Shown here one piece after another: positions 42,732 to 63,648 of a stretch of 64,000 bases of DNA. The notes beneath the pieces were generated by a model that was not told the origin of the DNA, ran no database searches, and saw only the letters and a list, made by a program, of their open reading frames with translations. The stretch is taken from contig BDTO01000053.1 of NCBI GenBank assembly GCA_002897855.1, positions 45,205 through 109,204 of the forward strand. Reading direction: 5' to 3'. Numbering within the stretch: the stretch's first letter is position 1; each line of letters begins with the position of its first letter. The DNA is from a bacterium BMS3Bbin05 (lineage in GTDB: Bacteria > Nitrospirota > Thermodesulfovibrionia > Thermodesulfovibrionales > BMS3Bbin05). The translations under genes were made by a program, and so were the position numbers.

Positions 42732-42742
42732 TTTTCCTCCAC

Positions 42743-44260: not shown

Positions 44261-44317
44261 TTATGACTCCTTAACTCCTGCTAAACGTACTTGCATGCGT
44301 CTTTCCATTCTGCTCAA

Positions 44318-46252: not shown

Positions 46253-46347
46253 AATCTTTCCTTTGAAAATCCAAACATTAAAGAGAAAAATCCAGAAATC
46301 CGGAATTCATTTATTTCCAATTCTGCATTTTGTACTTTAATCTTCCT

Positions 46348-46650
46348 TCATCCTTTCATATCGTTCATCTCGTCCACATGAACTGTCGGTTTGTTTCTGA
46401 ACAGGGCTACGATTAACGCAAGCCCTATCGCAGCTTCAGCAGCAGCAACGGCTATTATAAAGAATACAAGCACCTGGCCGCGCAAATCCTGCATATAATG
46501 GCTGAAGGCCATAAGACTGATGTTGACCCCGTTAAGCATCAATTCCATGGACAAAAACATTATTATAATATTCCTGCGGGTCAGGAACCCGAGTATGCCT
46601 ATCGTAAAAACTACAGCGCTCAAAAGCAGATACCAGTTTAATGGGACCAT
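46348..46650 (-). CDS. nuoK: NADH-quinone oxidoreductase subunit K
   Basis: 100 aa, three TM helices, typical NuoK size and position. Confidence 0.9.
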
Positions 46651-46653
46651 ATT

Positions 46654-47181: not shown

Positions 47182-47743
47182 CCGGTCTCTCCGTTTCCGG
47201 TCTGCTCCCGCTGAAGACCGCCTGGTCATCATGAGCTGTAAAATCCTCCGACTTCGGTCTCCAGAACCGCTCAAAATATTCTATCCCTTTCTTGCCGGAC
47301 ATGTATTTGTCCCAGTTTGAGAGCAGTTTATCCCTTGTCATGTAAAAATCATCCCTTGAATAATTCGAATACTCAAAGTGCTCCGTAAGCGAAATGGCCC
47401 CATATGGGCATGCCTCTACGCAAAATGCACAAAATACGCACCTCAGCACCTCGATCTCGTATCTCTCAACTATCTTCTGGTGGTCCGGCCCGTCTATCGT
47501 ATGAATATTTATGCACTTTGACGGACAGACTGCCGCGCACAGACCGCATCCCACACACTTGGCATCCCCTGTAACGGGATTTCTGACAAGTGCATGAAGC
47601 CCCCTGAAACCCGGAGCGGCCTGTCTTTTTTCCTTTGGATAACGCCTGGTAACCGGTTTGGTAAAAAGACGGCTCAGCGTCAGCGCCAGACCCTTCAGTA
47701 TCTCCCACAGAAAAATCTTTTTTATTATTGCCGAAACTTTCAT
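47171..47743 (-). CDS. nuoI: NADH-quinone oxidoreductase subunit I
   Basis: Start re-set to ATG 47743 (ATGA overlap with the nuoH stop). Two 4Fe-4S motifs: CVGCGLCAAVCP and CVFCAFCVEACP. Confidence 0.92.
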   Translation of the reverse strand: MKVSAIIKKIFLWEILKGLALTLSRLFTKPVTRRYPKEKRQAAPGFRGLHALVRNPVTGDAKCVGCGLCAAVCPSKCINIHTIDGPDHQKIVERYEIEVLRCVFCAFCVEACPYGAISLTEHFEYSNYSRDDFYMTRDKLLSNWDKYMSGKKGIEYFERFWRPKSEDFTAHDDQAVFSGSRPETERPDGD

Positions 47744-48777
47744 ACCAGCAGTTTTATAAACCCCGTAATAACAATATTCAGCAGGGCAAGTGGAATAAGC
47801 ACCTTCCATCCAATGGCCATAAGCTGGTCATACCTGTATCTCGGAAGCGTCGCCCTCACCCAGTAATAAACAAACATTCCAAGGTAGACCTTGGCTGCAA
47901 AAACAATTACCCCCGGAATCTTCGAAAGAAACGGCGCCACATTCAGAATATAATGCGGAATGGTCCAGCCACCTAAAAAGCATGTAACGGCTATGGATGA
48001 CATGATAATCATCCCTACATACTCACCAAGGTAAAAAAGCGCAAATCTTATACCGCTATATTCGACAAAATATCCTGCAACAAGTTCATTCTCCGCCTCG
48101 GGCAAGTCAAATGGTGCCCTGTTGGTCTCTGCAAAGGCGGCAACGATAAAGACAAAAAAACCGATTATCTGGGGAATTGCATAAAATCCGGTCGGGTAAT
48201 TCTGTTGTGCCCTGACTATATCCTGGAGATTAAGCGAACCCGCCATTATCATTACCCCGACAAGACTGAGCCCCAGCGGCACCTCGTAACTGATAACCTG
48301 CGCGGACGACCTCAGCCCTCCGAGAAATGCATATTTTGAATTCGAAGACCACCCGGCAAGAATAACTCCGTAGGCGCCCAGGGATGACATTGCAAGAATA
48401 AAGAGCAGGCCGATATTTATATCCGCTATGACAAAATTATTAAAAAACGGGATAACCGAAAGAGACGCAAGTGCGGCCATCATGCTGATGAGAGGGGCCA
48501 GATAGAAAACGGGCTTATCGGCATTGGCAGGGATAATGTCTTCCTTAAAAAACAGCTTCAGACCGTCGGCTATAGGCTGCAGCAAACCGTGCCAGCCAAC
48601 TTCCATCGGACCCATTCTTACCTGCATGTGCCCTATCGTTTTCCGTTCAAAATATGTCGCATACGCCACGTGCAGCAGCGCAACGGCAACAACTACAACT
48701 ATCTTCAGAGCTATAATGACAATATTAACTATTACATCAAAACTTCCCGGTTGTATTATGGTCTCAAAAAAATGCAT
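47740..48777 (-). CDS. nuoH: NADH-quinone oxidoreductase subunit H
   Basis: 345-aa polytopic protein. FERKTIGHMQVRMGP is the typical NuoH N-terminus. Confidence 0.93.
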   Translation of the reverse strand: MHFFETIIQPGSFDVIVNIVIIALKIVVVVAVALLHVAYATYFERKTIGHMQVRMGPMEVGWHGLLQPIADGLKLFFKEDIIPANADKPVFYLAPLISMMAALASLSVIPFFNNFVIADINIGLLFILAMSSLGAYGVILAGWSSNSKYAFLGGLRSSAQVISYEVPLGLSLVGVMIMAGSLNLQDIVRAQQNYPTGFYAIPQIIGFFVFIVAAFAETNRAPFDLPEAENELVAGYFVEYSGIRFALFYLGEYVGMIIMSSIAVTCFLGGWTIPHYILNVAPFLSKIPGVIVFAAKVYLGMFVYYWVRATLPRYRYDQLMAIGWKVLIPLALLNIVITGFIKLLV

Positions 48778-48778
48778 A

Positions 48779-51364
48779 TCACTGCACCTTCTCTATCTTT
48801 ATATCCGATAATTTCCACACAGGCGCCCCCGTGCCGGGCTCAATCCCGTAATCCACGAGAGACATGACGCAAACTCCCTCGAATACATTGGGTACCCTGA
48901 CACTAAAATCCCTTATCTCATTATCCACCTTTGACACCAGCTCAATGGACCATCCGTTCGCGGCTGCTATCTTTATCCTGTCACCATCTTTTATATCAAT
49001 GCTTTTTGCCGTATCAGGATGCATAACCGCGTAGGGCTCTGCCTGTATGCTGTTAAGCGCAGGAGAGTATCTGCTGAAAGAACCTGAGTGGAAAAGCAAC
49101 CTGTCCGGATACACGTGGCAGCCATGCCCTGTTTTTTCCACAACTTCTTCAGGTATCTTAATTTCCCATTTCCCGCTCCTTAGCGGTTCACCTTTATACG
49201 GCCAGAGTGATTTATCGGTGGCAAGGTCTTCATAGCTTACAGACCCGTAAAGATGTGAAGCGCGTGTTATCTCTTCCCAGATGTCCCTTGCGGAATTATA
49301 CTCCATCCTGCTGCCCATAAGTCCCGAAATTCCGGCAATGATCTGCCATCCCTCCAGTCCGCCAACAGATTTTTTGGCCCTGTGGAGCCTCTGTATCCTT
49401 CTTTCAAGATTTACATATGTGCCATCCTTTTCGGCCCACAGCGCAGCAGGAAGCACTACATCGGCCATCTTCGCCGTCTCTGAGAGAAAGGCATCCTGAA
49501 CAACAAGAAAATCGAGACCGGACATCGCCTCCCTTATCCTGTCTGCAGCAGGGAGATTAAAGACGGGATTGTCCCCCATTACGTAAGCAGCCTTTATATC
49601 GCCTTTCCCGATCGCCTCAAACATCTCAAACAGTGTAAGACCTTTCTGACCCGGGACTCCATAACCCATTTCCTGTTCAAACTTTTCCCTGAAGCTGCTT
49701 ATTTCCAAAGGCCGGCCTCCGGGAAGGGTATCCGGCATGCATCCGGTATCAATCACACCCTGTTCATTCGGCCTTTCGCTAAGGAGATAAATCCTTGCAT
49801 CGAGCACATAAATTATGGCGGCAATCAGGAACAATCCCATAAGGCCGTTATTTATCATGATATCAGGTCCGATAATGACGGATATGTTCTTCGGGTCCTT
49901 AAGATCCTCTGCAACTTTCTCAATATCAGACTTCCGAAGTCCTGTCCGTTGTGTTATCTCTTCATCATTCGGCCACTTTATATTCCCTATCTCCTGCTCT
50001 ATCGATCCGGACCGCCCCGGCAATCCTCTTGTATCGATCAGTGCCTTCAATAACGCTGAATACAGGAAATTTTCCGAGCCCGACCGTGCAACCGGTTCTG
50101 AGGAAGCAAACCTCTTCAGGCCGGCCGCATTACTCAGGGATACAACCTTTGCGCCATTACCGGATGCTGCCCGTACCTGGAGCCCAAGCACCGGATTTAT
50201 TTTGGTGGGATCACCGCCCGCAACAACTACAGCATCGGATTTCCCTATCCCGCTTATCAGATTTGCTGTTATGCCCTGGCCGAAAATGCCCTCAAAATAT
50301 GCCTGGGCCGGCGCATAAAACATCCTGATAATGGAATCTATATTATTGCTGAACAGAGTTTCTCTGAAAAATCTCTGAAAGACATAATTGTCCTCATTGG
50401 TCAATTCGGGAGAGACAATGCCTGCAAATTTTTCGCCTCCGTCTTGCTCCTTTATCTCACTGAATTTTTCAGCAACGAGCCCGAGCGCTTCAGCCCAGGA
50501 AACAGCCTTTAACTCGCCGTTTTTTCTGACAAGCGGGGTTGTTAATCTCCTGTTGCTCTCGATAATATCATATCCAAACCGACCCCTTGCACATAAAAGA
50601 CCTTTATTTATCCCCATCCCCATTCTTGGAATTGCCCTGAGAATCGTGTTCTCTCTCATCTGTAGAATCATTGAACAGCCGACTCCGCAAAAACCGCATA
50701 ATGTTTCGATTTCATCTTCAACAAACCAGGCCCTGTAACTGTGCCTGTGAAGACGCGACATGATAGCGCCTACCGGACAGACAGTAAGGCAATTACCACA
50801 GTATTCGCAATCATATCTGCCGCCGGAAAAAGGTTCAACAAATGAATGGTCTCCCCTGCCTGTCACCGTAATGGCGGAAGCTCTCTGCACCCCGTCGCAC
50901 ATCCTGACACACCGCGTACAGGTTACGCAACGCTCCATGTTTCTCACTATTATGGGATCGTCGAAACTCTCCGGATGACGCCGTTTTCCCTCTGCAAAAC
51001 GGCCCTCCTCGGCGCCATACTGTGCAACAAGATCCTGTAACTCACACTCCCCGGACTTGTCACAATAAGGACAGTCGAGAGGATGATTTATCAGAAGGAA
51101 TTCAAGCATCGCCTTCCTGGCCCTGATTATGGCATCCGTCTCGGTCCTTACCACCATACCGTCCGTAACCATTACCGTGCAGGCCGTTTGAAGCCTCGGC
51201 AGTTTTTCCACTTCGACAAGACAGAGCCTGCAACCCCCGAACTTCTCAAGACCTTCAAAAAAACAGAGGGTGGGTATCTTTATTCCCCCTGATCTCGCGG
51301 CCTCAAGTATGGTAACGGCCTTGTCGAACTTTATTTCCCTGTCGTTAATGGTTACAGTTATCAT
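48779..51364 (-). CDS. nuoG: NADH-quinone oxidoreductase subunit G (long form with molybdopterin-oxidoreductase-like domain)
   Basis: 861 aa. N-terminal 2Fe-2S ferredoxin-like region plus His/Cys 4Fe-4S motifs (HPLDCPYCDKSGECELQ), then a MopB-like domain. Confidence 0.93.
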   Translation of the reverse strand: MITVTINDREIKFDKAVTILEAARSGGIKIPTLCFFEGLEKFGGCRLCLVEVEKLPRLQTACTVMVTDGMVVRTETDAIIRARKAMLEFLLINHPLDCPYCDKSGECELQDLVAQYGAEEGRFAEGKRRHPESFDDPIIVRNMERCVTCTRCVRMCDGVQRASAITVTGRGDHSFVEPFSGGRYDCEYCGNCLTVCPVGAIMSRLHRHSYRAWFVEDEIETLCGFCGVGCSMILQMRENTILRAIPRMGMGINKGLLCARGRFGYDIIESNRRLTTPLVRKNGELKAVSWAEALGLVAEKFSEIKEQDGGEKFAGIVSPELTNEDNYVFQRFFRETLFSNNIDSIIRMFYAPAQAYFEGIFGQGITANLISGIGKSDAVVVAGGDPTKINPVLGLQVRAASGNGAKVVSLSNAAGLKRFASSEPVARSGSENFLYSALLKALIDTRGLPGRSGSIEQEIGNIKWPNDEEITQRTGLRKSDIEKVAEDLKDPKNISVIIGPDIMINNGLMGLFLIAAIIYVLDARIYLLSERPNEQGVIDTGCMPDTLPGGRPLEISSFREKFEQEMGYGVPGQKGLTLFEMFEAIGKGDIKAAYVMGDNPVFNLPAADRIREAMSGLDFLVVQDAFLSETAKMADVVLPAALWAEKDGTYVNLERRIQRLHRAKKSVGGLEGWQIIAGISGLMGSRMEYNSARDIWEEITRASHLYGSVSYEDLATDKSLWPYKGEPLRSGKWEIKIPEEVVEKTGHGCHVYPDRLLFHSGSFSRYSPALNSIQAEPYAVMHPDTAKSIDIKDGDRIKIAAANGWSIELVSKVDNEIRDFSVRVPNVFEGVCVMSLVDYGIEPGTGAPVWKLSDIKIEKVQ

Positions 51365-51373
51365 TAACCTGCC

Positions 51374-52633
51374 TCAATTCACCATGCACTTCCTGTTTTC
51401 AATGTGATGATCAAATTCATCGCTGAAATATTTAATAAAACTCAACAGCATGCCTGCAGCCCCATCGCCAAGAGGACAGAAGGTCTTGCCGGATATATTC
51501 GAGGCTACCTCAAGAAGAAGTTCTATATCTCCGTTCCTGCCCATACCATTTTCAATCCTCTCAAGTATATTACTGAGCCATCCCGTACCTTCCCTGCAGG
51601 GTGTACATTTGCCGCATGACTCATGTTCAAAAAACTGCATGGCCCTCATGCAGACACTTACAAGGCAGACGGACTCATCAAAGACCATAACGGCTCCCGA
51701 GCCCAGCATGCTGCCGGCCTTTGGCAGGTTTACAAAATCCATCTGACAGTCTATCTTGTCCGGTGGCAGAATGGGCGTTGATATACCGCCGGGGATAACC
51801 GCCTTTAACTTTCCCCCGCCCTTTATACCACCGCAATGTTTATAAATAATATCTCTCAGTATTGTTCCCATTGGAAGTTCATATACACCGGGTTTTTCAA
51901 CAAAACCGCTGACGCAGTAAAGCTTTGGCCCGGGACAGTCGGGATTGCCGATCTTTGAATATTCCTCCGGGCCGATCTCGATGATCAAAGGCAGATTTGA
52001 AAACGTTTCCACATTGTTGACGATTGTCGGTTTTCCCCAGGCCCCCACATTTACAGGGAACGGGGGTTTAAGCCTCGGCTGTCCCCTCTTGCCCTCTATG
52101 GATTCGATAAGCGCGGTCTCTTCACCACAGATGTAAGCTCCGGCGCCCCTGTGTACGGAGAGATCGAATTTAAAACCCTTCCCCGTTATATTTTCACCAA
52201 GCAGCCCTTCCTTATATGCCTGATCAATAGCTTTATCGAGAATGACTTCCGCCGCAGGATACTCGGCCCGGAGATAGATGTATCCCCTTCCAACCTTCAG
52301 CGCACGGGCCGCAATAACCATCCCTTCTATCAGAAGATGCGGGTCCCTTTCCAGTATGTGTCTATCCTTGAAGGTACCGGGTTCCCCTTCATCCGCATTA
52401 CATATCAGATATTTGGGAAAGTTTGGATCACGCGATGCAAAATCCCATTTCATGCCTGTAGGGAATCCCGCGCCCCCCCTTCCCCTGAGGCCCGACTTCT
52501 TTACCTCATCCACGATCTTCCCGGGTTCCATCTCAACGGCCTTTTTCAGCCCCTTGTATCCACCCGATTTCCGATACTCCCTTATATCCGTAGATCTGGG
52601 GTTATCAACATTTTTCAATAAGAATTTCTGCAT
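51374..52633 (-). CDS. nuoF: NADH-quinone oxidoreductase subunit F
   Basis: 419 aa. GLRGRGGAGFPTGMKW (FMN/NADH site) and ESCGKCTPCREG (4Fe-4S). Confidence 0.95.
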   Translation of the reverse strand: MQKFLLKNVDNPRSTDIREYRKSGGYKGLKKAVEMEPGKIVDEVKKSGLRGRGGAGFPTGMKWDFASRDPNFPKYLICNADEGEPGTFKDRHILERDPHLLIEGMVIAARALKVGRGYIYLRAEYPAAEVILDKAIDQAYKEGLLGENITGKGFKFDLSVHRGAGAYICGEETALIESIEGKRGQPRLKPPFPVNVGAWGKPTIVNNVETFSNLPLIIEIGPEEYSKIGNPDCPGPKLYCVSGFVEKPGVYELPMGTILRDIIYKHCGGIKGGGKLKAVIPGGISTPILPPDKIDCQMDFVNLPKAGSMLGSGAVMVFDESVCLVSVCMRAMQFFEHESCGKCTPCREGTGWLSNILERIENGMGRNGDIELLLEVASNISGKTFCPLGDGAAGMLLSFIKYFSDEFDHHIENRKCMVN

Positions 52634-52636
52634 ATC

Positions 52637-53101
52637 CTACTTATACCCATTCAGGATATCCATTACCCTCTTCTCATCGAGGTTGTCATGAAAATCATCA
52701 TTCACAAGCATTGCGGGCGCCGTACCACATGCCCCGATACATTCCATAATAACAAGGGAAAATCTCTTATCCCCGGTAGTACCACCCGCTTCGATCCCGA
52801 ATTCCCTTTTCAGCAAATCCACCAGTTTTTCCGCACCCATAATCATGCATGCCACATTCGTACATATCTGGATTATATTTCTGCCCATGGGGACATGTCT
52901 GTACATATGGTAAAACGTGGCTACTCCCTTGACCGTGGCGGGGGGTATGTTCAGCATCCCGGACACCTTGTAAAGCGACTCCTGTGAAAGCCAACCCTCC
53001 GTATTCTGTATCTCATGGAGTGCAGACATGATGGCCGACCTGAAGACAGGATAATCGCCTTTCTTCTGCTGAATTTTTTTTATTATCTCTTCAGTAATCA
53101 T
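52637..53101 (-). CDS. nuoE: NADH-quinone oxidoreductase subunit E
   Basis: 154 aa, thioredoxin-like 2Fe-2S subunit. QICTNVACMIMG...ECIGACGTAP. Confidence 0.93.
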   Translation of the reverse strand: MITEEIIKKIQQKKGDYPVFRSAIMSALHEIQNTEGWLSQESLYKVSGMLNIPPATVKGVATFYHMYRHVPMGRNIIQICTNVACMIMGAEKLVDLLKREFGIEAGGTTGDKRFSLVIMECIGACGTAPAMLVNDDFHDNLDEKRVMDILNGYK

Positions 53102-53141
53102 TTCCGGTTTTTGATTTCGCTCTTTTATTCTTAAACGATTA

Positions 53142-54338
53142 TTATCTGTCGCACTCTCCGAGTACTATATCAATCGTTCCTATATTGGCAACGACATCTG
53201 CAACCATATGACCCTTGCACAATCTCGGCAGAACAGAAGCATGTACAAAAGACGGTGCTCTCACCCGCATTCTGTAAGGCTTGCCTGTCCCGTCACTCAC
53301 TATGTAAAAACCGAGCTCACCCTTGGGGGCCTCCGTTGCAACATATATCTCACCTTCAGGTGCCGCCATCTGTCCCTTTGTTATCAGAACGAAGTGATGT
53401 ATCAGTGACTCCATGTCGGCAAGTACCCTGTCCTTGGAAGGGAGGATAACCTTCGGCGCGTCAGGCGTCAATACCGGCCCCTTCGGTATCTGTTCTATGC
53501 ACTGCCTTATGATACGGTTGGATTGCCTGAACTCTTCCATGCGGCAGCGATACCTGGCATAAACATCGCCGCTTTTACCAAGCGGCACTTCAAAATCAAC
53601 TTTATCATAGGCATCATACGGAAAACGTTTTCTTATATCATAATTTACTCCCGACCCTCTCAGTGTAGCACCGGAAAGACCCCAGTTAATAGCCTCTTCC
53701 GCCGGGATCACACCGATTCCCTTTGTCCTCTTCAGCCATATACGGTTCCGGTCTATCAGGGTCTCATATTCCCTGATCCTTCCCGGGAATTCATCCGTAA
53801 ACCTGTAAAGGCTGTCGAGAAAATGCCGGCTTACATCATTTCTGACACCGCCTATCCTGGGATAACTGACCGTCAGGCGGGCGCCGCAGAGTTCTTCAAA
53901 CAGATCGAGCAGCCACTCCCTCTCCCTGAAAGAGTATAGAAATATCGTCATGGCGCCGATATCCAGGGCATGGGTACCAATCCATATTATATGGCTGCTG
54001 ATACGAGCCATTTCGCATACTATTGTCCGGATATACTCGGCTCTCTCGGGCGCCCGTATGCCGAACAGCCTTTCGACAGCAAGGCAGTATCCAACATTAT
54101 TAGTCATCGATGATATATAATCCATCCTGTCCGTGAGAGGTATTGCGGAATGATATGTCATTGTCTCGGAAAGCTTTTCAATCCCCCTGTGAAGATAGCC
54201 TACATAAGGGGTACAATTAACTACGGTTTCCCCGTCAAGTTCCAGCACAAGCCGCAAAACACCATGGGTCGAAGGATGCTGCGGCCCCATGCTGACGGTA
54301 AGTTCTTTTGTTCTCAGATTATCCTTTATCCCTTCCAT
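53142..54338 (-). CDS. nuoD: NADH-quinone oxidoreductase subunit D
   Basis: Start re-set to ATG 54338 ([30 protein letters not shown]). The track begins at GTG 54392, inside nuoC. Confidence 0.93.
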
Positions 54339-54865
54339 TCGTATTTCCTGAACTCTTCCGATTTTCTCAGGACTTCCTTGAAGCCCTGCCACTCCCCTTC
54401 TGAATCAGGGCCTTTTACCGGGTAATCCTTTCTCAGGGGATAGCCTTCCCAGTCCTCCGGCATGAGAATTCTTCTCAGGTCGGGATGCCCCTTGAATTCT
54501 ATACCATACATGTCATAACACTCCCTCTCATGCCAGTCCGCTCCAATCCATATGGAAGTGACGGAATCAACAACACAATCACTTTCGCTTACGGGCACTT
54601 TTATTCTCAACATGTGCCTGTGTTCCATGGAATAGAGGTGGTAAACAACTTCAAAGCGGGAATCTCTTTTACCCAGATAATCGACTCCGCAGAGGTCTTT
54701 CAGGTAATCAAGCAGAAAAACCGGATCATCATGGAGATATCCAAAGATATCCGGTATCCTTTCCTTTTTCAGTACTAAGGATACCTGGCCCCTGAAATCC
54801 TGTATCTCTATGACTTCTTCAGGAAATTTCTCCCTGACCTTTTCGGCTAACCCAGAGGGCTCCAT
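54326..54865 (-). CDS. nuoC: NADH-quinone oxidoreductase subunit C
   Basis: 179 aa at the expected position. ...[24 protein letters not shown] is the NuoC signature region. Confidence 0.92.
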
Positions 54866-55368
54866 CTGAAATGCTCCTTCCTGATTTTTTGCTGCAGCTT
54901 TACGATACCATTCATCAGGGCTTCAGGTCTGGGCGGACAACCAGGCACATATACGTCCACCGGCAAAAAACTGTCGCAACCCTGGACAACGCTGTATGAC
55001 CTGAATATACCTCCCGAGCATGCGCAGCTTCCCATCGATATAACATATCTCGGCTCTGGCATCTGGTCATAAACCTTCCTCACTACAGGAGCCATTTTTT
55101 TTGTAACAGTTCCGGCCACTATCATGACATCGGCCTGCCTCGGAGAACCCCTGAAGATTACTCCCAGACGGTCAAGATCGTAATGGCTGGACCCTGTTGT
55201 CATCATCTCTATGGCACAGCACGCAAGCCCGAATGTAACAGGCCACAAAGATGAAGCCCTTCCCCAGTTTATTATTTTATCCAGTGCGGTTATTATCGTG
55301 TTTGCACCCGGAATAATCCTGATGCCTTCTTCCACTTCTATCAGTTCTTTATTTGTCTCAAACACCAT
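54847..55368 (-). CDS. nuoB: NADH-quinone oxidoreductase subunit B
   Basis: Start re-set to ATG 55368 (AGGTGG upstream). [17 protein letters not shown]...GSCACSGG...VPGCPPRPE. Confidence 0.93.
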
Positions 55369-55387
55369 AATCCCACCTGTTAATTGC

Positions 55388-55762
55388 CTATCTCTCCCAC
55401 TGAAATGCCTTCTTTTTCCAGGCATAAATATAACCTATCAACAAAATCAGTATGAAAACCATCATCTCAACAAATGCATACACACCTATCCTGTCAAAGA
55501 CAATAGCCCAGGGATAAAGGAAAATTGCCTCAACATCAAAAACAACAAACAGCATCGCTACAATAAAGAATTTAACGGAAAACCTGAACCTCGGTTCACC
55601 GACCGAAGGAATACCCGATTCATAGGCGGAAAGTTTTTCCGGATACGGTCTCCGGGGTCTGAAGAGCATGCCCACTACCAGCGCTCCGATACCGATAGTG
55701 AATGATATTACCAGAAATATCAGTATGGGAAGGTAATTTTCTGGCAAATAAGTCCCGGGCAT
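55388..55762 (-). CDS. nuoA: NADH-quinone oxidoreductase subunit A
   Basis: 124 aa, three TM helices, first gene of the operon. No RBS is visible upstream. Confidence 0.9.
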
Positions 55763-55770
55763 ATCAGTAA

Positions 55771-55800
55771 CTTATACATCAAACAAAATACCTTTGTCAA
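55771..55800 (-). promoter_or_regulatory. candidate sigma70 promoter of the nuo operon, placed for a (near-)leaderless nuoA
   Basis: The reverse strand reads TTGACA (55800-55795), an 18-nt spacer, TATAAG (55776-55771), then 8 nt (ttactgat) before ATG 55762. Confidence 0.35.
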
Positions 55801-55988
55801 CAAAAAATTTAAATCTGTAATTTTAGATTGTCTTAATAATGAAGATTTTACAAAATGGCGGCGTCCCGGGCTGGATTTTAATATAAAAATATTGTAAAGT
55901 TGTATGTGAGAGTCCGGAGATATGCCAAAATTTTCGTTTGTATACGGATCTTATAGCTTACTGTGACTTGATCGCCAAACACTTTGAT

Positions 55989-57668
55989 ATGCCAAAACTT
56001 TCATCTTTAAAAGAACTCATCGCCAGAAAGTCCATACACTCACTCAGCTTTAAGTTGATAGTCGCAATCGGCGGCCTCATAATCGTCGGGAGTCTGACCT
56101 TCTGGTACTCGATTATATATACGAGTGAAGAAGACGCCCTCAGGACCACTGCAAATCATGCCAAGACATACATAAACCTTATCAAAAAAAGCACTTTTCA
56201 GTATATGCTTGCAAACAACACGGATGCGGTACAGAAGACCTTCGAGTCCATGGCATCTGAAGAAGGGGTAATGGGCATCAGGGTATTTGACTGCAACGGC
56301 GCAATAGCTTTCTCGTCCGACCCTCGTGATGTGGGAAAACAGATTCCCGGCAACTCTGCAATCTGTAAAATATGCCATGAAGATCCGGCATCTCCTGCCA
56401 AATCCCTGAAATTCAGTAAAAGCTCTTTCAAACAACCGCAATGGGTCGTTCAGAAGAAGGATGACACGTATATCCTGAGGAGTGTTATCCCGATATACAA
56501 CGAACCATCCTGCTATACGGCTTCCTGCCACTTCCATAAAGAGACCAAAGAAAAACTCGGGATACTGGAAACCGATTATTCGCTCAGTGACCTCTATTCA
56601 ATGACAAAGCAGCAGAATATAGCCATAGCTTCTTTCGGCGTTATATTCACAGCTCTCACATCCGTGATCCTCTGCATCATTCTCTGGAAAATCGTCATAA
56701 GGCCATTGATAATACTATCGGAGGGCATGGAAAGCGTATCAAGGGGGGATCTGGACCACCGAGTGAACATCAATACAAAAGATGAACTCGGCATGCTTGC
56801 AAAGACGTTCAATTCAATGACGAAGGAGCTCAAGACATCAAGGGAGAGACTCGAAAACTGGGCAAAGGAACTCGAAGAAGAAGTGGCAAAGAAAACGGAG
56901 GAGATAAAAAGGGGGCAGGAGCAGTATATTCATACGGAAAAACTCGCCTCTCTCGGAAGGATGGCGGCGGGTGTTGCACATGAGCTTAACAGCCCACTCA
57001 CGGGTATAGTGACTTTCTCACATCTTCTGCTTGACCGGATACCACCGGAAAACAAGATGGACAGGGAAGACGTCGAGGTCATTATTGAGCAGGCTGAACG
57101 CTGTTCAAAGATTATTAAAGGGCTCCTGGGCTTTTCCCGTGCCATGCCGGCCGAAAAGAATGAAATAAACATAAACAAAACATTACGCCATTCCATCGGG
57201 ATGATAAAGAACCAGGCAAAGTTTCACAATATATCCATGGAAATGAAGCTTGATGAATCACTGCCTGTAGTAAACGGCGATGCCTCACAGATCGAACAGG
57301 TATTTCTAAACCTCTTCATCAATGCTGCAGATGCCATGAACGACAAAGGAGAAATACGGATAAAAACTTCCAATATCCAAATAGACAATAAACCCTATGT
57401 CGAAATAGTTATCTCCGACACCGGCCCCGGCATCCCGGAGGCAAATATGTCCAGGCTGTTTGAGCCGTTCTTTACTACAAAACCTGTAGGAAAGGGGACC
57501 GGGTTGGGGTTGGCGGTGAGCCACGGGATTATCAGAAAACACGGGGGCCATATAGTAGTACAAAGTCGCCCGGGTGAAGGAGCAAGCTTTTTAGTCAGGC
57601 TTCCCGTACCTGACAGCCGGGGCCGGGGAATGGAAAATGAAGATGGACACAATGAAAAAACAGACTGA
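55989..57668 (+). CDS. sensor histidine kinase with periplasmic CxxCH-containing domain, HAMP, HisKA, HATPase
   Basis: The track ORF starts at TTG 55938; I list ATG 55989 (MPKLSSLKEL). Two TM helices flank a ~170-aa loop containing CKICH (56364-56378) and CYTASCH (56511-56531). H-box AAGVAHELNSPL; G-box DTGPGI...GKGTGLGLAVSHGII. Confidence 0.88.
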   Translation: MPKLSSLKELIARKSIHSLSFKLIVAIGGLIIVGSLTFWYSIIYTSEEDALRTTANHAKTYINLIKKSTFQYMLANNTDAVQKTFESMASEEGVMGIRVFDCNGAIAFSSDPRDVGKQIPGNSAICKICHEDPASPAKSLKFSKSSFKQPQWVVQKKDDTYILRSVIPIYNEPSCYTASCHFHKETKEKLGILETDYSLSDLYSMTKQQNIAIASFGVIFTALTSVILCIILWKIVIRPLIILSEGMESVSRGDLDHRVNINTKDELGMLAKTFNSMTKELKTSRERLENWAKELEEEVAKKTEEIKRGQEQYIHTEKLASLGRMAAGVAHELNSPLTGIVTFSHLLLDRIPPENKMDREDVEVIIEQAERCSKIIKGLLGFSRAMPAEKNEININKTLRHSIGMIKNQAKFHNISMEMKLDESLPVVNGDASQIEQVFLNLFINAADAMNDKGEIRIKTSNIQIDNKPYVEIVISDTGPGIPEANMSRLFEPFFTTKPVGKGTGLGLAVSHGIIRKHGGHIVVQSRPGEGASFLVRLPVPDSRGRGMENEDGHNEKTD

Positions 57669-59097
57669 TCGGGATGCAGGGGGAAACAGCATTTCTGCTG
57701 CTAAAATTCTTGTTATTGACGACGAGGAGATTCTCCTTAAGAGCTGCAGGAGGGCGCTTGAACCTTCAGGATATGATGTCGTAACGGCTCAATACCCTGA
57801 AGACGGTTTTAATCTTCTGGAAAACGAGCGGTTTGATCTGGTACTTTCAGACCTCAGGATGCCCCTGGTAGACGGTATGGAAATCCTGCGGAAAGTAAAA
57901 GAAAGCTGGCCGGATACAGAGGTAATAATAATTACGGGACATGGAACGGTCAACACCGCAGTATCTGCAATAAAACTGGGCGCTTACGATTATGTCGAGA
58001 AACCATTTACTCCGGATACCCTGAATATCATCGTGGAAAAGGCCCTTGAGCGAAAAAAGCTGTATCTCGAAAACGCAAGGCTTAAGAAAGAAATAAGGGG
58101 CCACTACATAAAAAACATCATAGGCAAATCGCAGGCCATGGAAAATGTCTTTAAACTCATAGCATCGGTTGCTCCTGCATCGAGTACTGTGTTGATAACC
58201 GGAGAGAGCGGGACGGGAAAGGAACTTGCCGCCCGTGCAATTCATTATAACAGCCCGCGCAGTGATAACCCGTTTGTAGTCGTAGACTGCGGAACAATAT
58301 CGGAAAATCTCATGGAATCGGAGCTTTTCGGTCATGTCAAGGGGTCATTCACGGGTGCAACCGAGACCAGGAAGGGGCTCATTGAGGCTGCCGACACAGG
58401 AACTCTCTTTCTTGATGAAATAGGGAACCTTCCTTTATCCCTCCAGTCAAAACTTCTGAGAGTATTGCAGGAAAGGGAATACCGCCCCATCGGGAGCAAA
58501 AAGTCCTTTAAGGTGGATATCCGGTTTATTGCAGCAACCAACAGGGACCTGAAGAAAATGACGACTGAAGAAACATTCAGGGAAGACCTTTATTACAGGC
58601 TCAATATATTTCCCATACGCATCCCTCCCCTCAGGGAGAGAAAGGAAGATATCCCGCTTCTATCTTTCCATTTTCTGAATAAATTTGCGCCTGAACTCGA
58701 TATGGAGGAGTGCAGTATCTCAGCCGAAGCCATGAATATCCTTATAAATCACGACTGGCCGGGAAATGTAAGGGAACTCGAAAATAACATTCACAGGGCA
58801 ATGCTATTGAGCGAAAGGGGCTCGATAACACCATCCCGGCTTGCTTTTCTGGATAATGAAAACACGGGTCACGTGCCGGAGACTATTGAAGAACTCAAGA
58901 AGATCAAGAAGAAATTAAGGTCAAGGTCCGTTGAGAAAGTTGAAAAAGCATTTATAACAAAAGCCCTGGAAAGAAACAACTGGAACATTACCAGGGCCGC
59001 CAATGATGTCGGTATGCAGAGAACGAATTTTCATGCGCTCATCAAAAAATACAACATTCCTGTCAGGACTGAATCGAACCGGGGCGGCGGCAGGTGA
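57637..59097 (+). CDS. sigma54-dependent response regulator (NtrC family: REC - AAA+ - Fis-type HTH)
   Basis: ILVIDDEE...LVLSDLRMPLVDG, GESGTGKE, GSFTGA (GAFTGA variant), C-terminal NWNITRAANDVGMQRTNFHALIKKY. The start could instead be ATG 57652. Confidence 0.9.
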   Translation: MKMDTMKKQTDRDAGGNSISAAKILVIDDEEILLKSCRRALEPSGYDVVTAQYPEDGFNLLENERFDLVLSDLRMPLVDGMEILRKVKESWPDTEVIIITGHGTVNTAVSAIKLGAYDYVEKPFTPDTLNIIVEKALERKKLYLENARLKKEIRGHYIKNIIGKSQAMENVFKLIASVAPASSTVLITGESGTGKELAARAIHYNSPRSDNPFVVVDCGTISENLMESELFGHVKGSFTGATETRKGLIEAADTGTLFLDEIGNLPLSLQSKLLRVLQEREYRPIGSKKSFKVDIRFIAATNRDLKKMTTEETFREDLYYRLNIFPIRIPPLRERKEDIPLLSFHFLNKFAPELDMEECSISAEAMNILINHDWPGNVRELENNIHRAMLLSERGSITPSRLAFLDNENTGHVPETIEELKKIKKKLRSRSVEKVEKAFITKALERNNWNITRAANDVGMQRTNFHALIKKYNIPVRTESNRGGGR

Positions 59098-59444
59098 AAC
59101 TTCAGAAGATAATAGATACATTAGAGGCAGTTACACTCGACAGCACCACTAATACCGGCCTTGAAGTAGGGTGGGCATGCGCAACAGACCTGATGAGCGA
59201 GGTTCTCTATTATGCCCATGAAAACTCTTTATTGCTTACGGGACTGGTAAAACCGCAGGTGATAAGAACCGCCGAAATCGCAGATATCAGGGTGGTAGTT
59301 TTTACAAGGGGGAAGGAACCGGATACAGAAACAATCTCGCTGGCAAAACGGAAGGGCATTACACTTCTGGTAACCCCGCTTTCCCTCTTTACGGCAAGCG
59401 GCAGGCTTTTCAGCGCGGGGCTCCAGTGCTGCCCGTATACCTGA
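59094..59444 (+). CDS. DRTGG-domain protein 1
   Basis: 116 aa. The GTG start overlaps the regulator stop (GTGA). SLLLTGLVKPQVIRTAEIADIRVVVFTRGKEPDTETISLAKRKGITLLVTPLSLFTASGRL fits the DRTGG-domain pattern as I remember it. Confidence 0.65.
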   Translation: MKLQKIIDTLEAVTLDSTTNTGLEVGWACATDLMSEVLYYAHENSLLLTGLVKPQVIRTAEIADIRVVVFTRGKEPDTETISLAKRKGITLLVTPLSLFTASGRLFSAGLQCCPYT

Positions 59445-59474
59445 TAAATACAAAGGAGTTTTATTCGGAAAGAA

Positions 59475-59921
59475 ATGGATCATACCAGGAAAATTGATGG
59501 GAGATTTAACCTGGTTGGAGGTGATTTTACCAATGCAGGCGAAGCTTCTACTCAATTGAAAAAGATACTTCAATTGCGCGGAGTAAAAGACTCATACATC
59601 AGGCGCGCATCAATAGCAACATTCGAGGCGGAGATGAACGTAATTATATATACCCCTGCCGGAATCCTCAGGTATGATGTTGATGATGAATCCATCAAGA
59701 TTACCGTAGAAGATATGGGGCCCGGGATTGAAGATATCGATCTTGCCATGCAGGAAGGTTATTCGACAGCACCCGAATGGGTCAGAGAGATGGGATGGGG
59801 CGCCGGTATGGGCCTGCCGAACATGAAAAAAAACTCGGATGTTTTTAGAATCGATTCTGCTCCGGGAGAAGGCACAACAGTAAAGATGATCATTTATTTA
59901 AACAAAGGAGAGCAATCATGA
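59475..59921 (+). CDS. stand-alone GHKL/HATPase protein (anti-sigma-factor-kinase-like)
   Basis: 148 aa. ITVEDMGPGIEDIDLAMQEGYST...GWGAGMGLPNMKKNSDVFRIDSAPGEGTTV. No HisKA or dimerisation domain. Confidence 0.75.
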   Translation: MDHTRKIDGRFNLVGGDFTNAGEASTQLKKILQLRGVKDSYIRRASIATFEAEMNVIIYTPAGILRYDVDDESIKITVEDMGPGIEDIDLAMQEGYSTAPEWVREMGWGAGMGLPNMKKNSDVFRIDSAPGEGTTVKMIIYLNKGEQS

Positions 59922-60253
59922 CCATTGGGGACATAATCAATCAATTATCGCCGGACTCTTTCAGCATCGAACCGGACAGGGATATTGAAATTAAAGATGT
60001 CTATGTCAGTGACCTGCTTTCCGACGTCATGGCCAACGCCGGAGAAGGCTCTCTATGGATAACTCTGCAAACGCATATAAATATCGTTGCCGTAGCTTCC
60101 ATGAAAAACATGCCTGCCGTCATCCTCGTAAATGGCCGCAAGCCGGAGGGAGAGACTGTTCAAAAGGCCGCATCCGAGGGTATTGCACTATTCGGAACAG
60201 ACATGCATGCCTTTGAACTGGCGGGAAGACTTTACAATATGTTGCATGGTTAG
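59918..60253 (+). CDS. DRTGG-domain protein 2
   Basis: 111 aa with ATGA overlap to the HATPase gene. SLWITLQTHINIVAVASMKNMPAVILVNGRKPEGETVQKAASEGIALFGTDMHAFELAGRL is colinear with DRTGG protein 1. Confidence 0.65.
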   Translation: MTIGDIINQLSPDSFSIEPDRDIEIKDVYVSDLLSDVMANAGEGSLWITLQTHINIVAVASMKNMPAVILVNGRKPEGETVQKAASEGIALFGTDMHAFELAGRLYNMLHG

Positions 60254-60288
60254 GGAAATTTACCACCTCTTTTTTTATTATTTATTTT

Positions 60289-61035
60289 ATGATTAAAAGA
60301 TACCGCTCCGACCTCCACATTCATTCATGCCTTTCGCCATGTGCGGAACTCGACATGACACCCAAAAGGATTATCAGCCGGGCGGTTGAAAAACAACTCG
60401 ACATCATAGCTGTATCGGATCACAACAGTGCGGAGCATGTACATGTAACTATGGAATTGGGAAGCAAGCATAATATCGCAGTCCTTCCCGCGATGGAGAT
60501 ATCATCCGCTGAAGAAGTCCATATGCTTGCTTTTTTTGATTCTATCGATGACTGTCTCAAAGTCCATGAAGATGTCTCGGCTTCCATGTCCAATATACCG
60601 TCATACAGTCATGACGAAACTTCGCAGCCGGTTGTAAATGTAAAAGAGGAGATACTGTATTTCAATCCTCTTCCCCTCATCAACGCCGCTGATATACCGG
60701 TGGAAAAGCTGGTCGGAATCATTCACCGAAACAACGGCCTTGCCGTCGCCAGCCACATTGACAGGGAGGTATTCGGTATAATATCCCAGCTCGGATTCAT
60801 ACCTGAAGGACTTCCGCTTGATGCGGTTGAAGTCTCGTGGCGCGTCAAATCGGAAGAAGAGGCTCAACGTTTTATTGCCGGTCAAGAGTATCCCATAGTA
60901 TCTTTTTCCGACGCCCACCATATTGTCGATATCGGCAGAAGAATCACGGAATTTTATATTGAAAAACCGGCTATTAAGGGTATTCGCATGTGCCTCAGAA
61001 GCGAAGCGGGCAGGAAGTTAACTGTCTTGTATTAA
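60289..61035 (+). CDS. PHP-domain metal-dependent phosphoesterase
   Basis: 248 aa. DLHIHSCLSPCAELD and IIAVSDHNS are typical PHP His/Asp motifs. Confidence 0.85.
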   Translation: MIKRYRSDLHIHSCLSPCAELDMTPKRIISRAVEKQLDIIAVSDHNSAEHVHVTMELGSKHNIAVLPAMEISSAEEVHMLAFFDSIDDCLKVHEDVSASMSNIPSYSHDETSQPVVNVKEEILYFNPLPLINAADIPVEKLVGIIHRNNGLAVASHIDREVFGIISQLGFIPEGLPLDAVEVSWRVKSEEEAQRFIAGQEYPIVSFSDAHHIVDIGRRITEFYIEKPAIKGIRMCLRSEAGRKLTVLY

Positions 61036-61200: not shown

Positions 61201-62574
61201 TTAGAAGAGATATGTCAGTTGCATTCCGACGGAATCCTCTTTCAGAGATATCGTCGCACCGGAATCAGCTGTGAAAGGTGTCATTTGCTGGAATCCGGCA
61301 GGTACATCGTTTCGCCCCTTCAGAGTCTCCTTGAAGGCCTTCATATAAGTCATGGCTATACCCCAGTGATCACCCAGCATATAATCGGCTCCAATAGTAA
61401 AATGCTGTTCCACGATAGCAGGCAGGACGAGATTATTGAACACATCTTTTTCGTCAATTGGCGCTTTTGAGTAGTTGTATCCTGTACGGACGGTCAACCT
61501 GTCGGTTGCCTTATACTGTATACCCAACGCATATACCCACTGGTCTTTCCACCCGAAGTCAAGCGTTGTCGAATCAGTCGGGCCGCTCGGCGTCATAAAT
61601 GCACCGCTTGGTCCCGAAAAATCAACCTTGTCATGGGTATCAGACCAGTTAATCCATTTAACATCAAAATCAACCAGGAGCGGTTTAATAGGTTTGATCG
61701 CAATACCTATAGCCGCCTGCCGGGGGAAATTAAGCGCCATCTTGTATGTGCCCGCCTTGCCCGTAGCACCGTTAAAATTGTAGACATCACCCGAACCCAC
61801 ACGGAATGTTGCATCACTAAAGAACTGTTTGCTCGAATATGAGGCACCGAGGGTAATCCAGTCGTTTATATCATAAAGCGCGCCAACGGTAGCGCCGATA
61901 CCCATCTGGCTTGTCGGGCGGCCAAGGTCAAGATTGACATCATCCTGCGTAACACCGGCCGACGGATTGCTCGGGTCGTTCCAGAACGGAACATTGCGAA
62001 TCCTTTCCCTGATCGCCACCGACTGATAATCAAGGTTAAGGGCAAAACCAAGGCTCAACTGTTTATTGACGTTCCACGCAATCGTAGGCGCCATCTTCCA
62101 GAAAGCTATTGCACTATATCCATCAAAAGTAACATCAGCAGGCATTCCCATCGCCGGATTGGCCGGCATCATGAGCACCTGGCCATAATCAACACCAAGA
62201 CCGGAAGTGCCATACATGCCGCCGCCAAAATAAATGTTGCTGGAGTTAAATGCAGGCGCCGTCCAGCCTATTGCAGGGATACCGTAAAGCTTTGAGCCGC
62301 CCTCGGTAGACTGACCGCTCATTGATGTGAAATCCACCGAGCGGTTGGGCATGAAGGCCTCCATACTGAAGTCTGCCCTCTTGCCGATACGCGCCATACC
62401 TGCCGGGTTGGTAATGGCAGTCATTGCATCCAGAGGCGCTGCGGTAACGGCACCGCCCATACTCTTTTCCTGCTGACCCACACCGATCAGCTGATAGCCG
62501 TTCGTTGCCATGGCCGTGCCTGTCATGCCTGCAAGAAAAACAAGAGCGAAAAAGACGAAAAAGAACCTCCTCAT
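61201..62574 (-). CDS. outer-membrane hydrophobic-compound channel, FadL/TodX (OmpP1) family
   Basis: 457 aa with signal peptide ...GMTGTAMA, early NGYQLIGVGQQEKSMGGA, a beta-rich body and a terminal aromatic (...QLTYLF). Confidence 0.8.
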   Translation of the reverse strand: MRRFFFVFFALVFLAGMTGTAMATNGYQLIGVGQQEKSMGGAVTAAPLDAMTAITNPAGMARIGKRADFSMEAFMPNRSVDFTSMSGQSTEGGSKLYGIPAIGWTAPAFNSSNIYFGGGMYGTSGLGVDYGQVLMMPANPAMGMPADVTFDGYSAIAFWKMAPTIAWNVNKQLSLGFALNLDYQSVAIRERIRNVPFWNDPSNPSAGVTQDDVNLDLGRPTSQMGIGATVGALYDINDWITLGASYSSKQFFSDATFRVGSGDVYNFNGATGKAGTYKMALNFPRQAAIGIAIKPIKPLLVDFDVKWINWSDTHDKVDFSGPSGAFMTPSGPTDSTTLDFGWKDQWVYALGIQYKATDRLTVRTGYNYSKAPIDEKDVFNNLVLPAIVEQHFTIGADYMLGDHWGIAMTYMKAFKETLKGRNDVPAGFQQMTPFTADSGATISLKEDSVGMQLTYLF

Positions 62575-62820: not shown

Positions 62821-63045
62821 ATGGCGAAGACGGAATTAGACTTCAAGGGGATGTCATGTCCCATGCCTATAATGAAGACGGCTATGGCATTTAAAAAGGC
62901 TGCTTCCGGAGATATCGTCGAGGTAGTATGTGATGATCCGGGGTTTGAACCCGATATCAGGGCATGGTGCAATGAGACAGGCAATGTCCTTGACAGTATC
63001 GAAAAGAAGGACAAGGATATTGTTGCGACAATAATCAAGAAATAA
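62821..63045 (+). CDS. tusA: TusA/SirA-family sulfurtransferase
   Basis: 74 aa. LDFKGMSCPMPIMK contains the CPxP active-site motif. Confidence 0.9.
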   Translation: MAKTELDFKGMSCPMPIMKTAMAFKKAASGDIVEVVCDDPGFEPDIRAWCNETGNVLDSIEKKDKDIVATIIKK

Positions 63046-63063: not shown

Positions 63064-63648
63064 ATGGGGAACTCAGAGGCAACTGAAAAGATCAATGAAA
63101 TTAAGGAAGCAGGCGGAGAAGGGCTATCTGCAAAGCTGAAAGAACTTGAAGACCGCGTCGCAAAGATCGAAGAAAAAGATGGCAATCTTACGCTGATCCT
63201 TATGAGCGGTGAGTTCGACAAGGCAATGGCCGCTTTTATCATCGCCAACGGGGCCCTCGCCATGGGCAAGGAAGTTACGATATTCGTAACATTCTGGGGG
63301 CTTGACGTGATAAAAAAACCGGCTTTCAGCACCGCCGGCAGAAAATTTCTCGAAAAGATGGTACTCTGGATGAGGCCGAAAGGCCCCGACAAAATCCCGA
63401 CATCGAAGATGAATTTTGCCGGAATCGGTCCAAAGCTCTTCCGTTATATGATGGGCAAGAAAAATGTGGAAAAGCTTGGTTCTCTTATCGAGATGGCGCA
63501 GGAATTCGGCCTGAAGATCATCGCCTGCCAGATGTCTATGGATGTCATGGGGCTCAGGAAAGAAGACATGATAGACGGCATCGAGGTCGGTGGAGTGGCT
63601 GTAATGCTTAACAAGTCGTACAAGTCAAATTCAACATTATTTATATAG
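63064..63648 (+). CDS. DsrE/DsrF-like family protein (DsrE3/COG2210-like)
   Basis: 194 aa. After a ~35-aa charged N-terminus: LTLILMSGEFDKAMAAFIIANGALAMGKEVTIFVTFWGL...KIIACQMSMDVMGL. Confidence 0.7.
   Translation: MGNSEATEKINEIKEAGGEGLSAKLKELEDRVAKIEEKDGNLTLILMSGEFDKAMAAFIIANGALAMGKEVTIFVTFWGLDVIKKPAFSTAGRKFLEKMVLWMRPKGPDKIPTSKMNFAGIGPKLFRYMMGKKNVEKLGSLIEMAQEFGLKIIACQMSMDVMGLRKEDMIDGIEVGGVAVMLNKSYKSNSTLFI

Follow-up and report, generated by a model that had tools for sequence, protein, structure and literature searches.

Electron-bifurcating HydABC-type enzymes and Complex I share a NuoE/NuoF NADH-flavin module, and group D [FeFe]-hydrogenases have been labelled 'sensory' for over a decade. 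The literature places HydS, the putative sensory hydrogenase of this group, upstream of HydABC and beside a 'histidine kinase-like ATPase' or 'protein kinases'; Land et al. (2020) describe it with a 'histidine kinase-like ATPase' at its side, and a neighbouring 'kinase' has been mentioned in passing since 2010–2012. A 2024 review-level statement calls group D function undefined, and according to a 2026 paper group D HydS still awaits identification of its interaction partners and signalling route. Here we describe a relative of these clusters, a four-gene cassette at 59094–61035 (+ strand) of a 64,000-nucleotide stretch from the Nitrospirota bacterium BMS3Bbin05 (contig BDTO01000053.1; hereafter the window, from whose first letter all its coordinates are counted). 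The cassette encodes two paralogous DRTGG-domain proteins (DRTGG-A and DRTGG-B) on either side of a stand-alone GHKL ATPase (HATPase), followed by a PHP-family phosphoesterase. All four open reading frames (ORFs) lie where an initial annotation, made from the DNA letters and their translations, had put them.

The closest described systems are the HydS–HydABC clusters of Thermoanaerobacter mathranii (TamHydS) and C. thermocellum (Cthe_0335 to Cthe_0342), in which the four genes are orthologous and stand in the same order. The HATPase of this cluster type and that of the window are 45–56% identical, and both clusters are associated with NuoE/NuoF genes. The window differs in lacking HydS and a hydrogenase, in having the cassette joined to a HAMP histidine kinase plus sigma54 regulator, and in facing Complex I. 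Its HATPase and DRTGG-B genes share 4 bp (ATGA, 59918–59921) and it has no Fe_hyd_lg_C-like ORF; indeed, no [FeFe]-hydrogenase domain is encoded anywhere across the 64 kb, in agreement with the initial annotation. The window cassette is a HydS-less variant, coupled to a two-component system and situated beside Complex I, of a cassette known only in outline. That the module is undescribed, as had been claimed, is true of its DRTGG and PHP parts and not of the kinase: full-text literature searches found no paper linking DRTGG or PHP members to these operons or dealing with the gene fusions described below, and none of the four proteins has a family of its own in NCBIfam. The accompanying claim that its function had not been established agrees with the literature through 2026. 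The hfsABCD genes of Thermoanaerobacterium were considered as a described equivalent and rejected, as they are built on a group C PAS-hydrogenase.

In our reading, the four genes are the part that stays constant in a modular signalling cassette of the cytoplasm, which would be a partner-switch-like phospho-switch acting on a NuoE/NuoF-containing enzyme; we put the probability of this reading at roughly 0.55. The cassette provides a candidate partner set for group D HydS (two DRTGG proteins, a SpoIIAB-like kinase and a PHP enzyme), a grouping supported by gene fusions, and its position in the window raises the possibility that bacterial Complex I is phospho-regulated.

A constant core with interchangeable sensors

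The HATPase has more than 8,000 database relatives at E ≤ 1e-3, and a whole-library search with it at that threshold gave 1,734 clusters at 50% identity, many of them fusion proteins. With a single genome taken per species, a pattern scan confirmed at least 599 loci, placing the cassette in at least 599 species-representative genomes from many phyla; the ORFs of the cassette are real genes, not chance reading frames. The 80 most similar loci were examined, annotated by six-frame ORFs labelled with the window's own proteins (L-numbers below denote these related loci). Represented among them are Bacteroidales, many Bacillota, Acidobacteriota, Spirochaetota, Synergistota, Chloroflexota, Planctomycetota, Zixibacteria, Nitrospirota and others. 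The initial annotation had located the quartet in Firmicutes and Thermotogae, next to NuoE/NuoF subunits of [FeFe]-hydrogenases. That setting is common, but the range is far wider and Thermotogae are absent from the examined loci; the literature assigns Thermotogae a different sensor, a PAS-type group C hydrogenase.

Across the 80 loci, the usual order is DRTGG-A, HATPase, a protein of ~440 aa, DRTGG-B and PHP, often followed by a stand-alone histidine-kinase catalytic domain (~180 aa) and then by NuoE, a small protein resembling thioredoxin, NuoF (~597 aa) and a subunit of ~590 aa. In the ~440-aa protein, Fer4, Fe_hyd_lg_C and an iron–sulfur (FeS) domain, PF04060, are combined, an architecture that Land et al. 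(2020) described for HydS, the putative sensory hydrogenase of group D/M2e. Because the HydS gene stands between HATPase and DRTGG-B in most loci, the cassette is, in most genomes, tied to this hydrogenase-like sensor as its input. The quartet proposed as a conserved unit holds up as the core, therefore, with a fifth member, HydS, left out. Among loci with at least 9 kb of sequence on each side (n = 37, 'fully flanked'), DRTGG-A is present in 36, DRTGG-B in 35 and PHP in 33. The order of the paralogues is constant, A preceding HATPase and B following either HATPase or HydS.

Gene order and sequence of the core are conserved over many phyla; the attached sensors differ. HydS, adjoining the kinase or fused to its C-terminus, is the input in the majority of loci. 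A second type has no HydS and carries a pair of CBS domains on the N-terminus of the HATPase (L023, L042, L060, L065, L076 and L080). The third, comprising the window and its relatives, also lacks HydS and has a membrane HAMP histidine kinase with two haem-c motifs, plus a receiver protein, directly upstream; this kinase directly precedes the cassette in every HydS-less locus whose contig extends so far. The same core thus pairs with inputs other than HydS, either CBS pairs or a haem-type histidine kinase with its receiver. Natural fusions tie the parts of the cassette together: HATPase–Fer4–Fe_hyd_lg_C–FeS (~520 aa), CBS2–HATPase, REC–HATPase and DRTGG-A–HATPase, the last represented by more than 100 clusters at 90% identity (265–278 aa).

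Association with NuoE/NuoF enzymes

The cassette is usually embedded in, or adjoins, an operon for a NuoE/NuoF-type enzyme. A homologue of NuoE or NuoF lies within 10 kb of it in 29 of the 37 fully flanked loci (78%), in line with the co-occurrence that the initial annotation had put forward as a check; NuoF is found in 43 of 59 loci with at least 6 kb of downstream sequence. Genomes hold only a handful of NuoF paralogues, so that chance proximity, roughly estimated from these copy numbers, would be a few per cent.

The third subunit of these enzymes varies. It is a true HydA, with Fe_hyd_lg_C and small-subunit domains, in L010, L022, L032 and L085; a ~590-aa protein with N-terminal Fe-S domains and no H-cluster domain in L021 (16174–17958), L038 (16083–17858) and L055 (9816–11576); a ~1,087-aa Fer2/Fer4/Pyr_redox_2 (GltD-like) fusion in L011, L042, L065 and L080; and a molybdopterin/FdhA-like protein in L002. 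In two CBS-type loci (L065 and L042) the cassette lies within a single operon, flanked by its NuoF gene and its NuoG-like gene. With Complex I added, the core accompanies NuoE/NuoF enzymes with at least five different catalytic partners. Because the third subunit ranges over HydA, H-cluster-less, GltD-like, molybdopterin and Complex I forms, gene context supports a putative link of the cassette to the NuoE/NuoF module, not to hydrogenase as such. A switch tied to NADH-flavoprotein modules and not to hydrogenases, as originally suggested, agrees with these varied partners on the output side and calls for correction on the input side, where a hydrogenase-like protein, HydS, is the usual sensor.

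HydS cassettes also precede NuoE/NuoF enzymes whose third subunit has no H-cluster (L021, L038 and L055). Since HydS cassettes front such enzymes, a putative H2 sensor may control non-hydrogenase enzymes of the bifurcating type.

The position of the cassette among enzyme structural genes in an apparent operon, even between NuoF and the third subunit, is also what might be expected of maturation or quality-control factors for the NuoE/NuoF Fe-S-flavoprotein module, with the GHKL protein as a chaperone-like clamp and the PHP protein processing a cofactor or nucleotide. The GHKL superfamily does contain chaperones, and PHP enzymes handle many phosphorylated metabolites. The variable partners of the cassette, however, are classical sensor or input modules throughout (HydS, CBS, REC and HAMP kinase), which argues for signalling, and the kinase is SpoIIAB-like, not Hsp90- or MutL-like. 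Published preparations and structures of HydABC, moreover, are not known to hold any protein but HydA, HydB and HydC (with HydD in some). We judge a maturation role to be very improbable.

A plausible six-gene operon divergent from Complex I

Directly upstream of the window cassette are genes for a membrane sensor histidine kinase (55938–57668, +; 576 aa; HAMP-HisKA-HATPase by Pfam) and an NtrC-type response regulator (57637–59097, +; REC, sigma54 AAA+ and HTH_8 by Pfam), the sigma54 two-component system that had been predicted here. The regulator stop and DRTGG-A start codons share a GTGA overlap (59094–59097). Together with the ATGA overlap of HATPase and DRTGG-B this accounts for only two of the four junctions; the remaining two are not overlaps but gaps, of 30 and 35 bp. 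No terminator-like structure occurs on the + strand from the kinase gene through the end of PHP. Given the two 4-bp overlaps, the short gaps and the lack of a terminator, it is plausible that the kinase, the regulator and the four small genes form a six-gene operon.

Divergent from the kinase gene, a complete nuoA-N operon for Complex I occupies 41298–55762 (−), with ten subunits recognized by Pfam and nuoE (52637–53101), nuoF (51374–52633) and nuoG (48779–51364) among its genes. The nuoA start lies 3.3 kb from the DRTGG-A gene; both the arrangement and the distance are as first annotated. A divergent nuoA is kept in ten further loci (L001, L002, L006, L008 and L086–L091), or 10 of 12 informative relatives, L007 being uninformative. 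Since some of these loci are closely related to one another, they represent perhaps seven or eight independent lineages. It is this conserved synteny that suggests a functional link between cassette and nuo.

A candidate sigma70-type promoter for nuoA, TTGACA-18 nt-TATAAG, can be read at 55771–55800 (−), and its −35 element, which appears as a TGTCAA box on the + strand, is conserved in nine nuoA–kinase intergenic regions. The sigma54 consensus is absent from the shared intergenic region (55763–55988), and matches to it across the window are below chance expectation; a sigma54 promoter driving nuo or the kinase operon was accordingly rejected. A further box (55871–55879, CTGGATTTT) precedes the kinase gene; it does not represent a sigma54 promoter and is conserved only where the regulator is of the sigma54 type (window, L004, L006 and L087).

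In L091, a near-consensus sigma54 promoter (CTGGCATGCGCTTTGCT, 19528–19545) sits 9 kb downstream, ~30 nt before a gene for a 256-aa REC protein, behind which lies a NuoE-like gene. Their equivalents in the REC-only loci L002 and L086 have no such promoter, and the REC and NuoE-like genes of L091 are a possible target of the NtrC-type regulator. In L002 (13278–14171) and L086 (13294–14190) the region downstream of the cassette encodes REC–NuoE fusions, the NuoE part being a 2Fe-2S thioredoxin-like domain; in L002, a NuoF-like subunit (617 aa) and an FdhA-like subunit (819 aa) come next. We regard these fusions as leads for direct control of NuoE-type subunits.

These observations bear on a different reading, in which the cassette is an accessory two-component branch unrelated to Complex I, acting on the kinase or regulator or on other sigma54 targets, and the nuo adjacency is the inherited gene order of one lineage. 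The conserved sigma70-type promoter of nuoA and the lack of a sigma54 promoter in the shared region would be expected from it, as would the retention of kinase, regulator and cassette without nuo in L004/L005 and L009. All nuo-adjacent cases come from Nitrospirota-type metagenome-assembled genomes and one 'Deferribacteres'-labelled lineage, and the strong sigma54 promoter of L091 stands before other genes. Those genes, however, encode a REC protein and a NuoE-like protein, and half of the relatives carry a REC-only regulator that has no DNA-binding output. Lineage inertia cannot explain the general association, because the orthologous cassette in unrelated phyla again adjoins NuoE/NuoF, in other operon contexts. 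An unrelated branch with an inherited gene order is, in our estimate, quite unlikely.

A likely haem-based input

The sensor kinase consists of a first transmembrane segment, a ~170-aa periplasmic domain, a second transmembrane segment, and HAMP, HisKA and HATPase domains. Orthologue alignment indicates that its true start is probably ATG 55989 (MPKLSS...) and not the listed TTG 55938. Two motifs in the periplasmic domain, CKICH (56364–56378) and CYTASCH (56511–56531), recur in its orthologues, with CxxCH in 10 of 10 and Cx4CH in 9 of 10; the conserved motifs make a c-haem (possibly di-haem) redox or gas sensor likely. There is a weak Pfam match to Mcp40H-20, a sensor domain of methyl-accepting chemotaxis protein.

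The regulator scores 243 bits for Sigma54_activat, 103 for Response_reg and 37 for HTH_8, with GSFTGA at residue 236, so that kinase (HisKA plus HATPase) and regulator (REC, sigma54 and HTH domains) together make up a two-component system of the NtrC type. Across the related loci the regulator is NtrC-type in about half, a REC-only protein taking its place in the rest (six relatives: L001, L002, L008, L086, L088 and a sister lineage of L006). That about half of the loci have a REC-only protein argues that transcription is not the sole, or not the main, output.

The window shares its HAMP-HisKA-HATPase kinase and REC-sigma54-HTH regulator with NtrB/NtrC and ZraS/ZraR, and HoxBC–HoxJ–HoxA of the [NiFe] regulatory hydrogenases is a functional analogue that places a redox enzyme under the control of a coupled redox or gas sensor. 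Unlike all of these, the window has four extra genes after the regulator and c-haem motifs in the sensor domain, and in half of its relatives the regulator has no output domain.

The HATPase is SpoIIAB-like

The HATPase (59475–59921, +; 148 aa) passes two Pfam models, HATPase_c (30.9 bits) and HATPase_c_2 (29.9 bits), both above their cut-offs. It has no HisKA/DHp match and no room for one, which separates it from classical sensor histidine kinases and bears out its first description as a GHKL ATPase free of HisKA. All three nucleotide-binding boxes of the GHKL fold are intact—N box (E51, E53 and N55), G1 box (D80xGxG) and G2 box (G107xGxGxGL)—and E51/E53/N55, D80-G82-G84 and G107-G109-G111-G113 are invariant across 27 aligned sequences.

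Sequence and fold both place the protein with the SpoIIAB/RsbW type. The best NCBIfam match is SpoIIAB (TIGR01925, 4e-15, 55.9 bits against an equivalog cut-off of 135 bits) and the best PDB matches are SpoIIAB entries (1L0O and 1TIL). Foldseek aligns the model of an orthologous fusion protein to SpoIIAB with a TM-score of 0.84–0.86 (root mean square deviation 2.0–2.5 Å), RsbW coming next. An anti-sigma factor reading was rejected, no sigma or STAS genes being present in any annotated neighbourhood; specifically, no STAS or sigma70-family domain occurs in the window operon or in the Pfam-annotated neighbours of related loci.

Two DRTGG paralogues share an invariant serine

DRTGG-A (59094–59444, +; 116 aa) is a single DRTGG domain, scoring 24.7 bits against PF07085, 0.5 below the gathering cut-off of 25.2; its orthologues exceed the cut-off, and it aligns (E = 4e-4) with the DRTGG domain in 3L2B, a structure of C. 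perfringens CBS-pyrophosphatase. DRTGG-B (59918–60253, +; 111 aa) has no Pfam DRTGG match of its own. It is colinear with DRTGG-A (27% identity, E = 1e-15), and its orthologues score as PF07085. An orthologous DRTGG domain model matches 3L31 in Foldseek. DRTGG-A is hence assigned to the family by profile and fold, DRTGG-B only through paralogy and its DRTGG-positive orthologues; the claim that two colinear DRTGG proteins flank the HATPase is supported, with both assignments marginal in Pfam.

Invariant positions in DRTGG-A are D32-L-M-S35 (S35 codon 59196–59198), T49-G50, R58-T59 and K74; those in DRTGG-B are Y29, D32-L-L-S35 (S35 codon 60020–60022), W47, T49, Q51, H53 and N55. Both paralogues therefore carry an sDL[ML]SDV motif, whose serine is invariant in 80 and 71 sequences, respectively, and in 78 fusion proteins. 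In an AlphaFold2 (AF2) model of a DRTGG-A–HATPase fusion (predicted local distance difference test (pLDDT) 87, predicted TM-score (pTM) 0.76, linker disordered), this serine lies at the N-terminus of a helix, directly after a strand. The phosphorylated serine of SpoIIAA occupies a similar N-cap position at a strand-to-helix junction. We propose the invariant Ser35 as a candidate phospho-acceptor site.

The same DRTGG fold is found in the CBS-DRTGG-CBS insert of family II pyrophosphatases (3L2B/3L31), and the pairing of DRTGG with CBS recurs in the CBS–HATPase variant of the cassette. The cassette proteins differ from the insert in being free-standing and in forming two fixed paralogues, and sDL[ML]SDV is absent from the pyrophosphatase sequence.

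A PHP enzyme with a complete metal site

The last gene of the quartet (60289–61035, +; 248 aa) encodes a PHP-family metal-dependent phosphoesterase, as annotated: the protein scores 27.7 bits against PF02811 (cut-off 26.4), carries the HxH start motif and has the complete ligand set (H10, H12, D44/H45, E70, H78, H156, D208 and H210), all of it invariant or nearly so. A C14..LSPC18 motif is specific to this family. The AF2 model, built with database homologues, is confident (pLDDT 93.5, pTM 0.92) and matches PHP structures, the nearest solved folds being the EndoQ PHP domain (TM-score 0.75), BAD_1165, RNase AM and TM0559. EndoQ (COG1379) itself can be set apart. Only the PHP domain aligns (TM-score 0.75 over the query versus 0.47 over the target), the protein has 248 aa as against ~400, and TIGR00375 gives 20 bits against a cut-off of 327.

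At residues 101–111 (window 60589–60621), the family-conserved N105, F110 and G111 are replaced by S, E and T, in a loop with pLDDT ~57. NCBIfam matches to TrlF/Ppl led us to consider anti-phage defence, which was rejected because the similarity (Ppl, 24 bits) is confined to the PHP domain; PADLOC gave no match for DRTGG-A, HATPase or DRTGG-B. In L026 (9308 onward) a single 434-aa ORF fuses PHP to HATPase_c. On account of this fusion there are hints that PHP may work together with a second, stand-alone kinase catalytic domain.

The fold neighbours of the PHP protein invite the view that the cassette is a nucleotide or ligand module, in which PHP cleaves a small phosphodiester or phosphomonoester (for instance a nucleotide, a dinucleotide or the end of a nucleic acid), the DRTGG proteins (and CBS pairs) are regulators that bind a ligand and the GHKL protein serves as an ATP-dependent clamp or sensor and not as a protein kinase. 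Nearest to the PHP model are EndoQ, nucleotide phosphatases of the BAD_1165/Cv1693 type, RNase AM and the PolC PHP domain, and its sequence matches models for RNase AM/RNM and 3',5'-bisphosphate nucleotidase. The best-known DRTGG domain is that in the nucleotide-regulated insert of family II pyrophosphatases, one variant of the cassette has CBS pairs fused to its kinase, and the invariant D-x-x-S-D at the strand–helix junction, with T49/G50 and K74, resembles a phosphate-binding site. Yet the cassette has no conserved nucleotide cyclase or synthetase, and the PHP protein, at 248 aa, is without the Zn-ribbon and C-terminal DNA-binding parts of EndoQ (~400 aa). The GHKL protein, furthermore, is specifically SpoIIAB/RsbW-like in sequence and fold, and SpoIIAB and RsbW are protein kinases. 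A nucleotide module appears to us unlikely.

A partner-switch-like model

The modules SpoIIAB–SpoIIAA–SpoIIE and RsbW–RsbV–RsbU/RsbT–RsbS–RsbX likewise combine a small stand-alone GHKL kinase with adjacent small partners. They and the cassette are alike in having a phosphoesterase in the same operon and a conserved partner serine at a helix N-terminus; they differ in that the cassette partners are DRTGG and not STAS proteins, and its phosphoesterase is PHP and not PP2C. We favour the partner-switch-like reading because the kinase is SpoIIAB-like, the DRTGG serine is invariant and the PHP metal site is complete.

Beyond parts that are conserved, linked and catalytically intact, we infer the following steps. 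The sensor would set the activity of the GHKL kinase, which would bind and probably phosphorylate a DRTGG partner, Ser35 being the candidate site; the two DRTGG paralogues probably heterodimerize. The PHP enzyme would reset the switch by phosphoester hydrolysis. The state of the switch would then adjust the NuoE/NuoF-containing enzyme, probably post-translationally, and in the window the sigma54 regulator would provide a parallel transcriptional output through a promoter outside this stretch.

Several points weigh against this phospho-switch. The analogy with partner switches is carried by the kinase alone, since the partner is not a STAS protein and the phosphoesterase is not a PP2C enzyme. 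The invariant serine could be a ligand- or phosphate-binding residue instead of an acceptor, and the PHP fold is nearest to nucleic-acid and nucleotide enzymes (EndoQ, RNase AM and the pAp phosphatase-like type), not to the protein phosphatases CpsB/YwqE. As to the target, 8 of the 37 fully flanked loci have no NuoE/NuoF within 10 kb, the HydS-less loci L004/L005 and L009 are not next to nuo, and nuoA is served by a conserved promoter of its own, of the sigma70 type, and lacks a sigma54 promoter.

A more specific form of the phospho-switch can be drawn, possible if on balance doubtful. The DRTGG proteins would be the phospho-acceptors or switch partners of the SpoIIAB-like kinase and PHP its cognate phosphatase, constituting a new class of partner switch free of STAS and PP2C. 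This would be the missing signalling path of group D, acting directly on NuoE/NuoF (in Nitrospirota, on Complex I) under a periplasmic haem-sensing kinase.

Neighbouring genes

Beyond the cassette the window encodes a FadL-like outer-membrane protein (61201–62574, −), TusA (62821–63045, +) and a DsrE-like protein (63064–63648, +), all assigned by Pfam. In L090 (10840–15870) and L091 (10927–15905) the order is PHP-FadL-TusA-DsrE-DsrE-DUF302-HATPase_c(180 aa)-REC(126 aa); a pair of stand-alone HATPase_c and REC genes directly follows PHP in L006 and L087. As the window shares the FadL-TusA-DsrE block with L090 and L091 up to its end, such a HATPase_c and REC pair probably lies just past position 64000. 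The window sequence is 100% identical to that of 'bacterium BMS3Abin07'. Just downstream of nuoN, at 35979–39959 (−), are genes for two further proteins, one a PAS-HisKA-HATPase-REC hybrid sensor kinase of 846 aa and the other a protein of 394 aa with two GAF domains.

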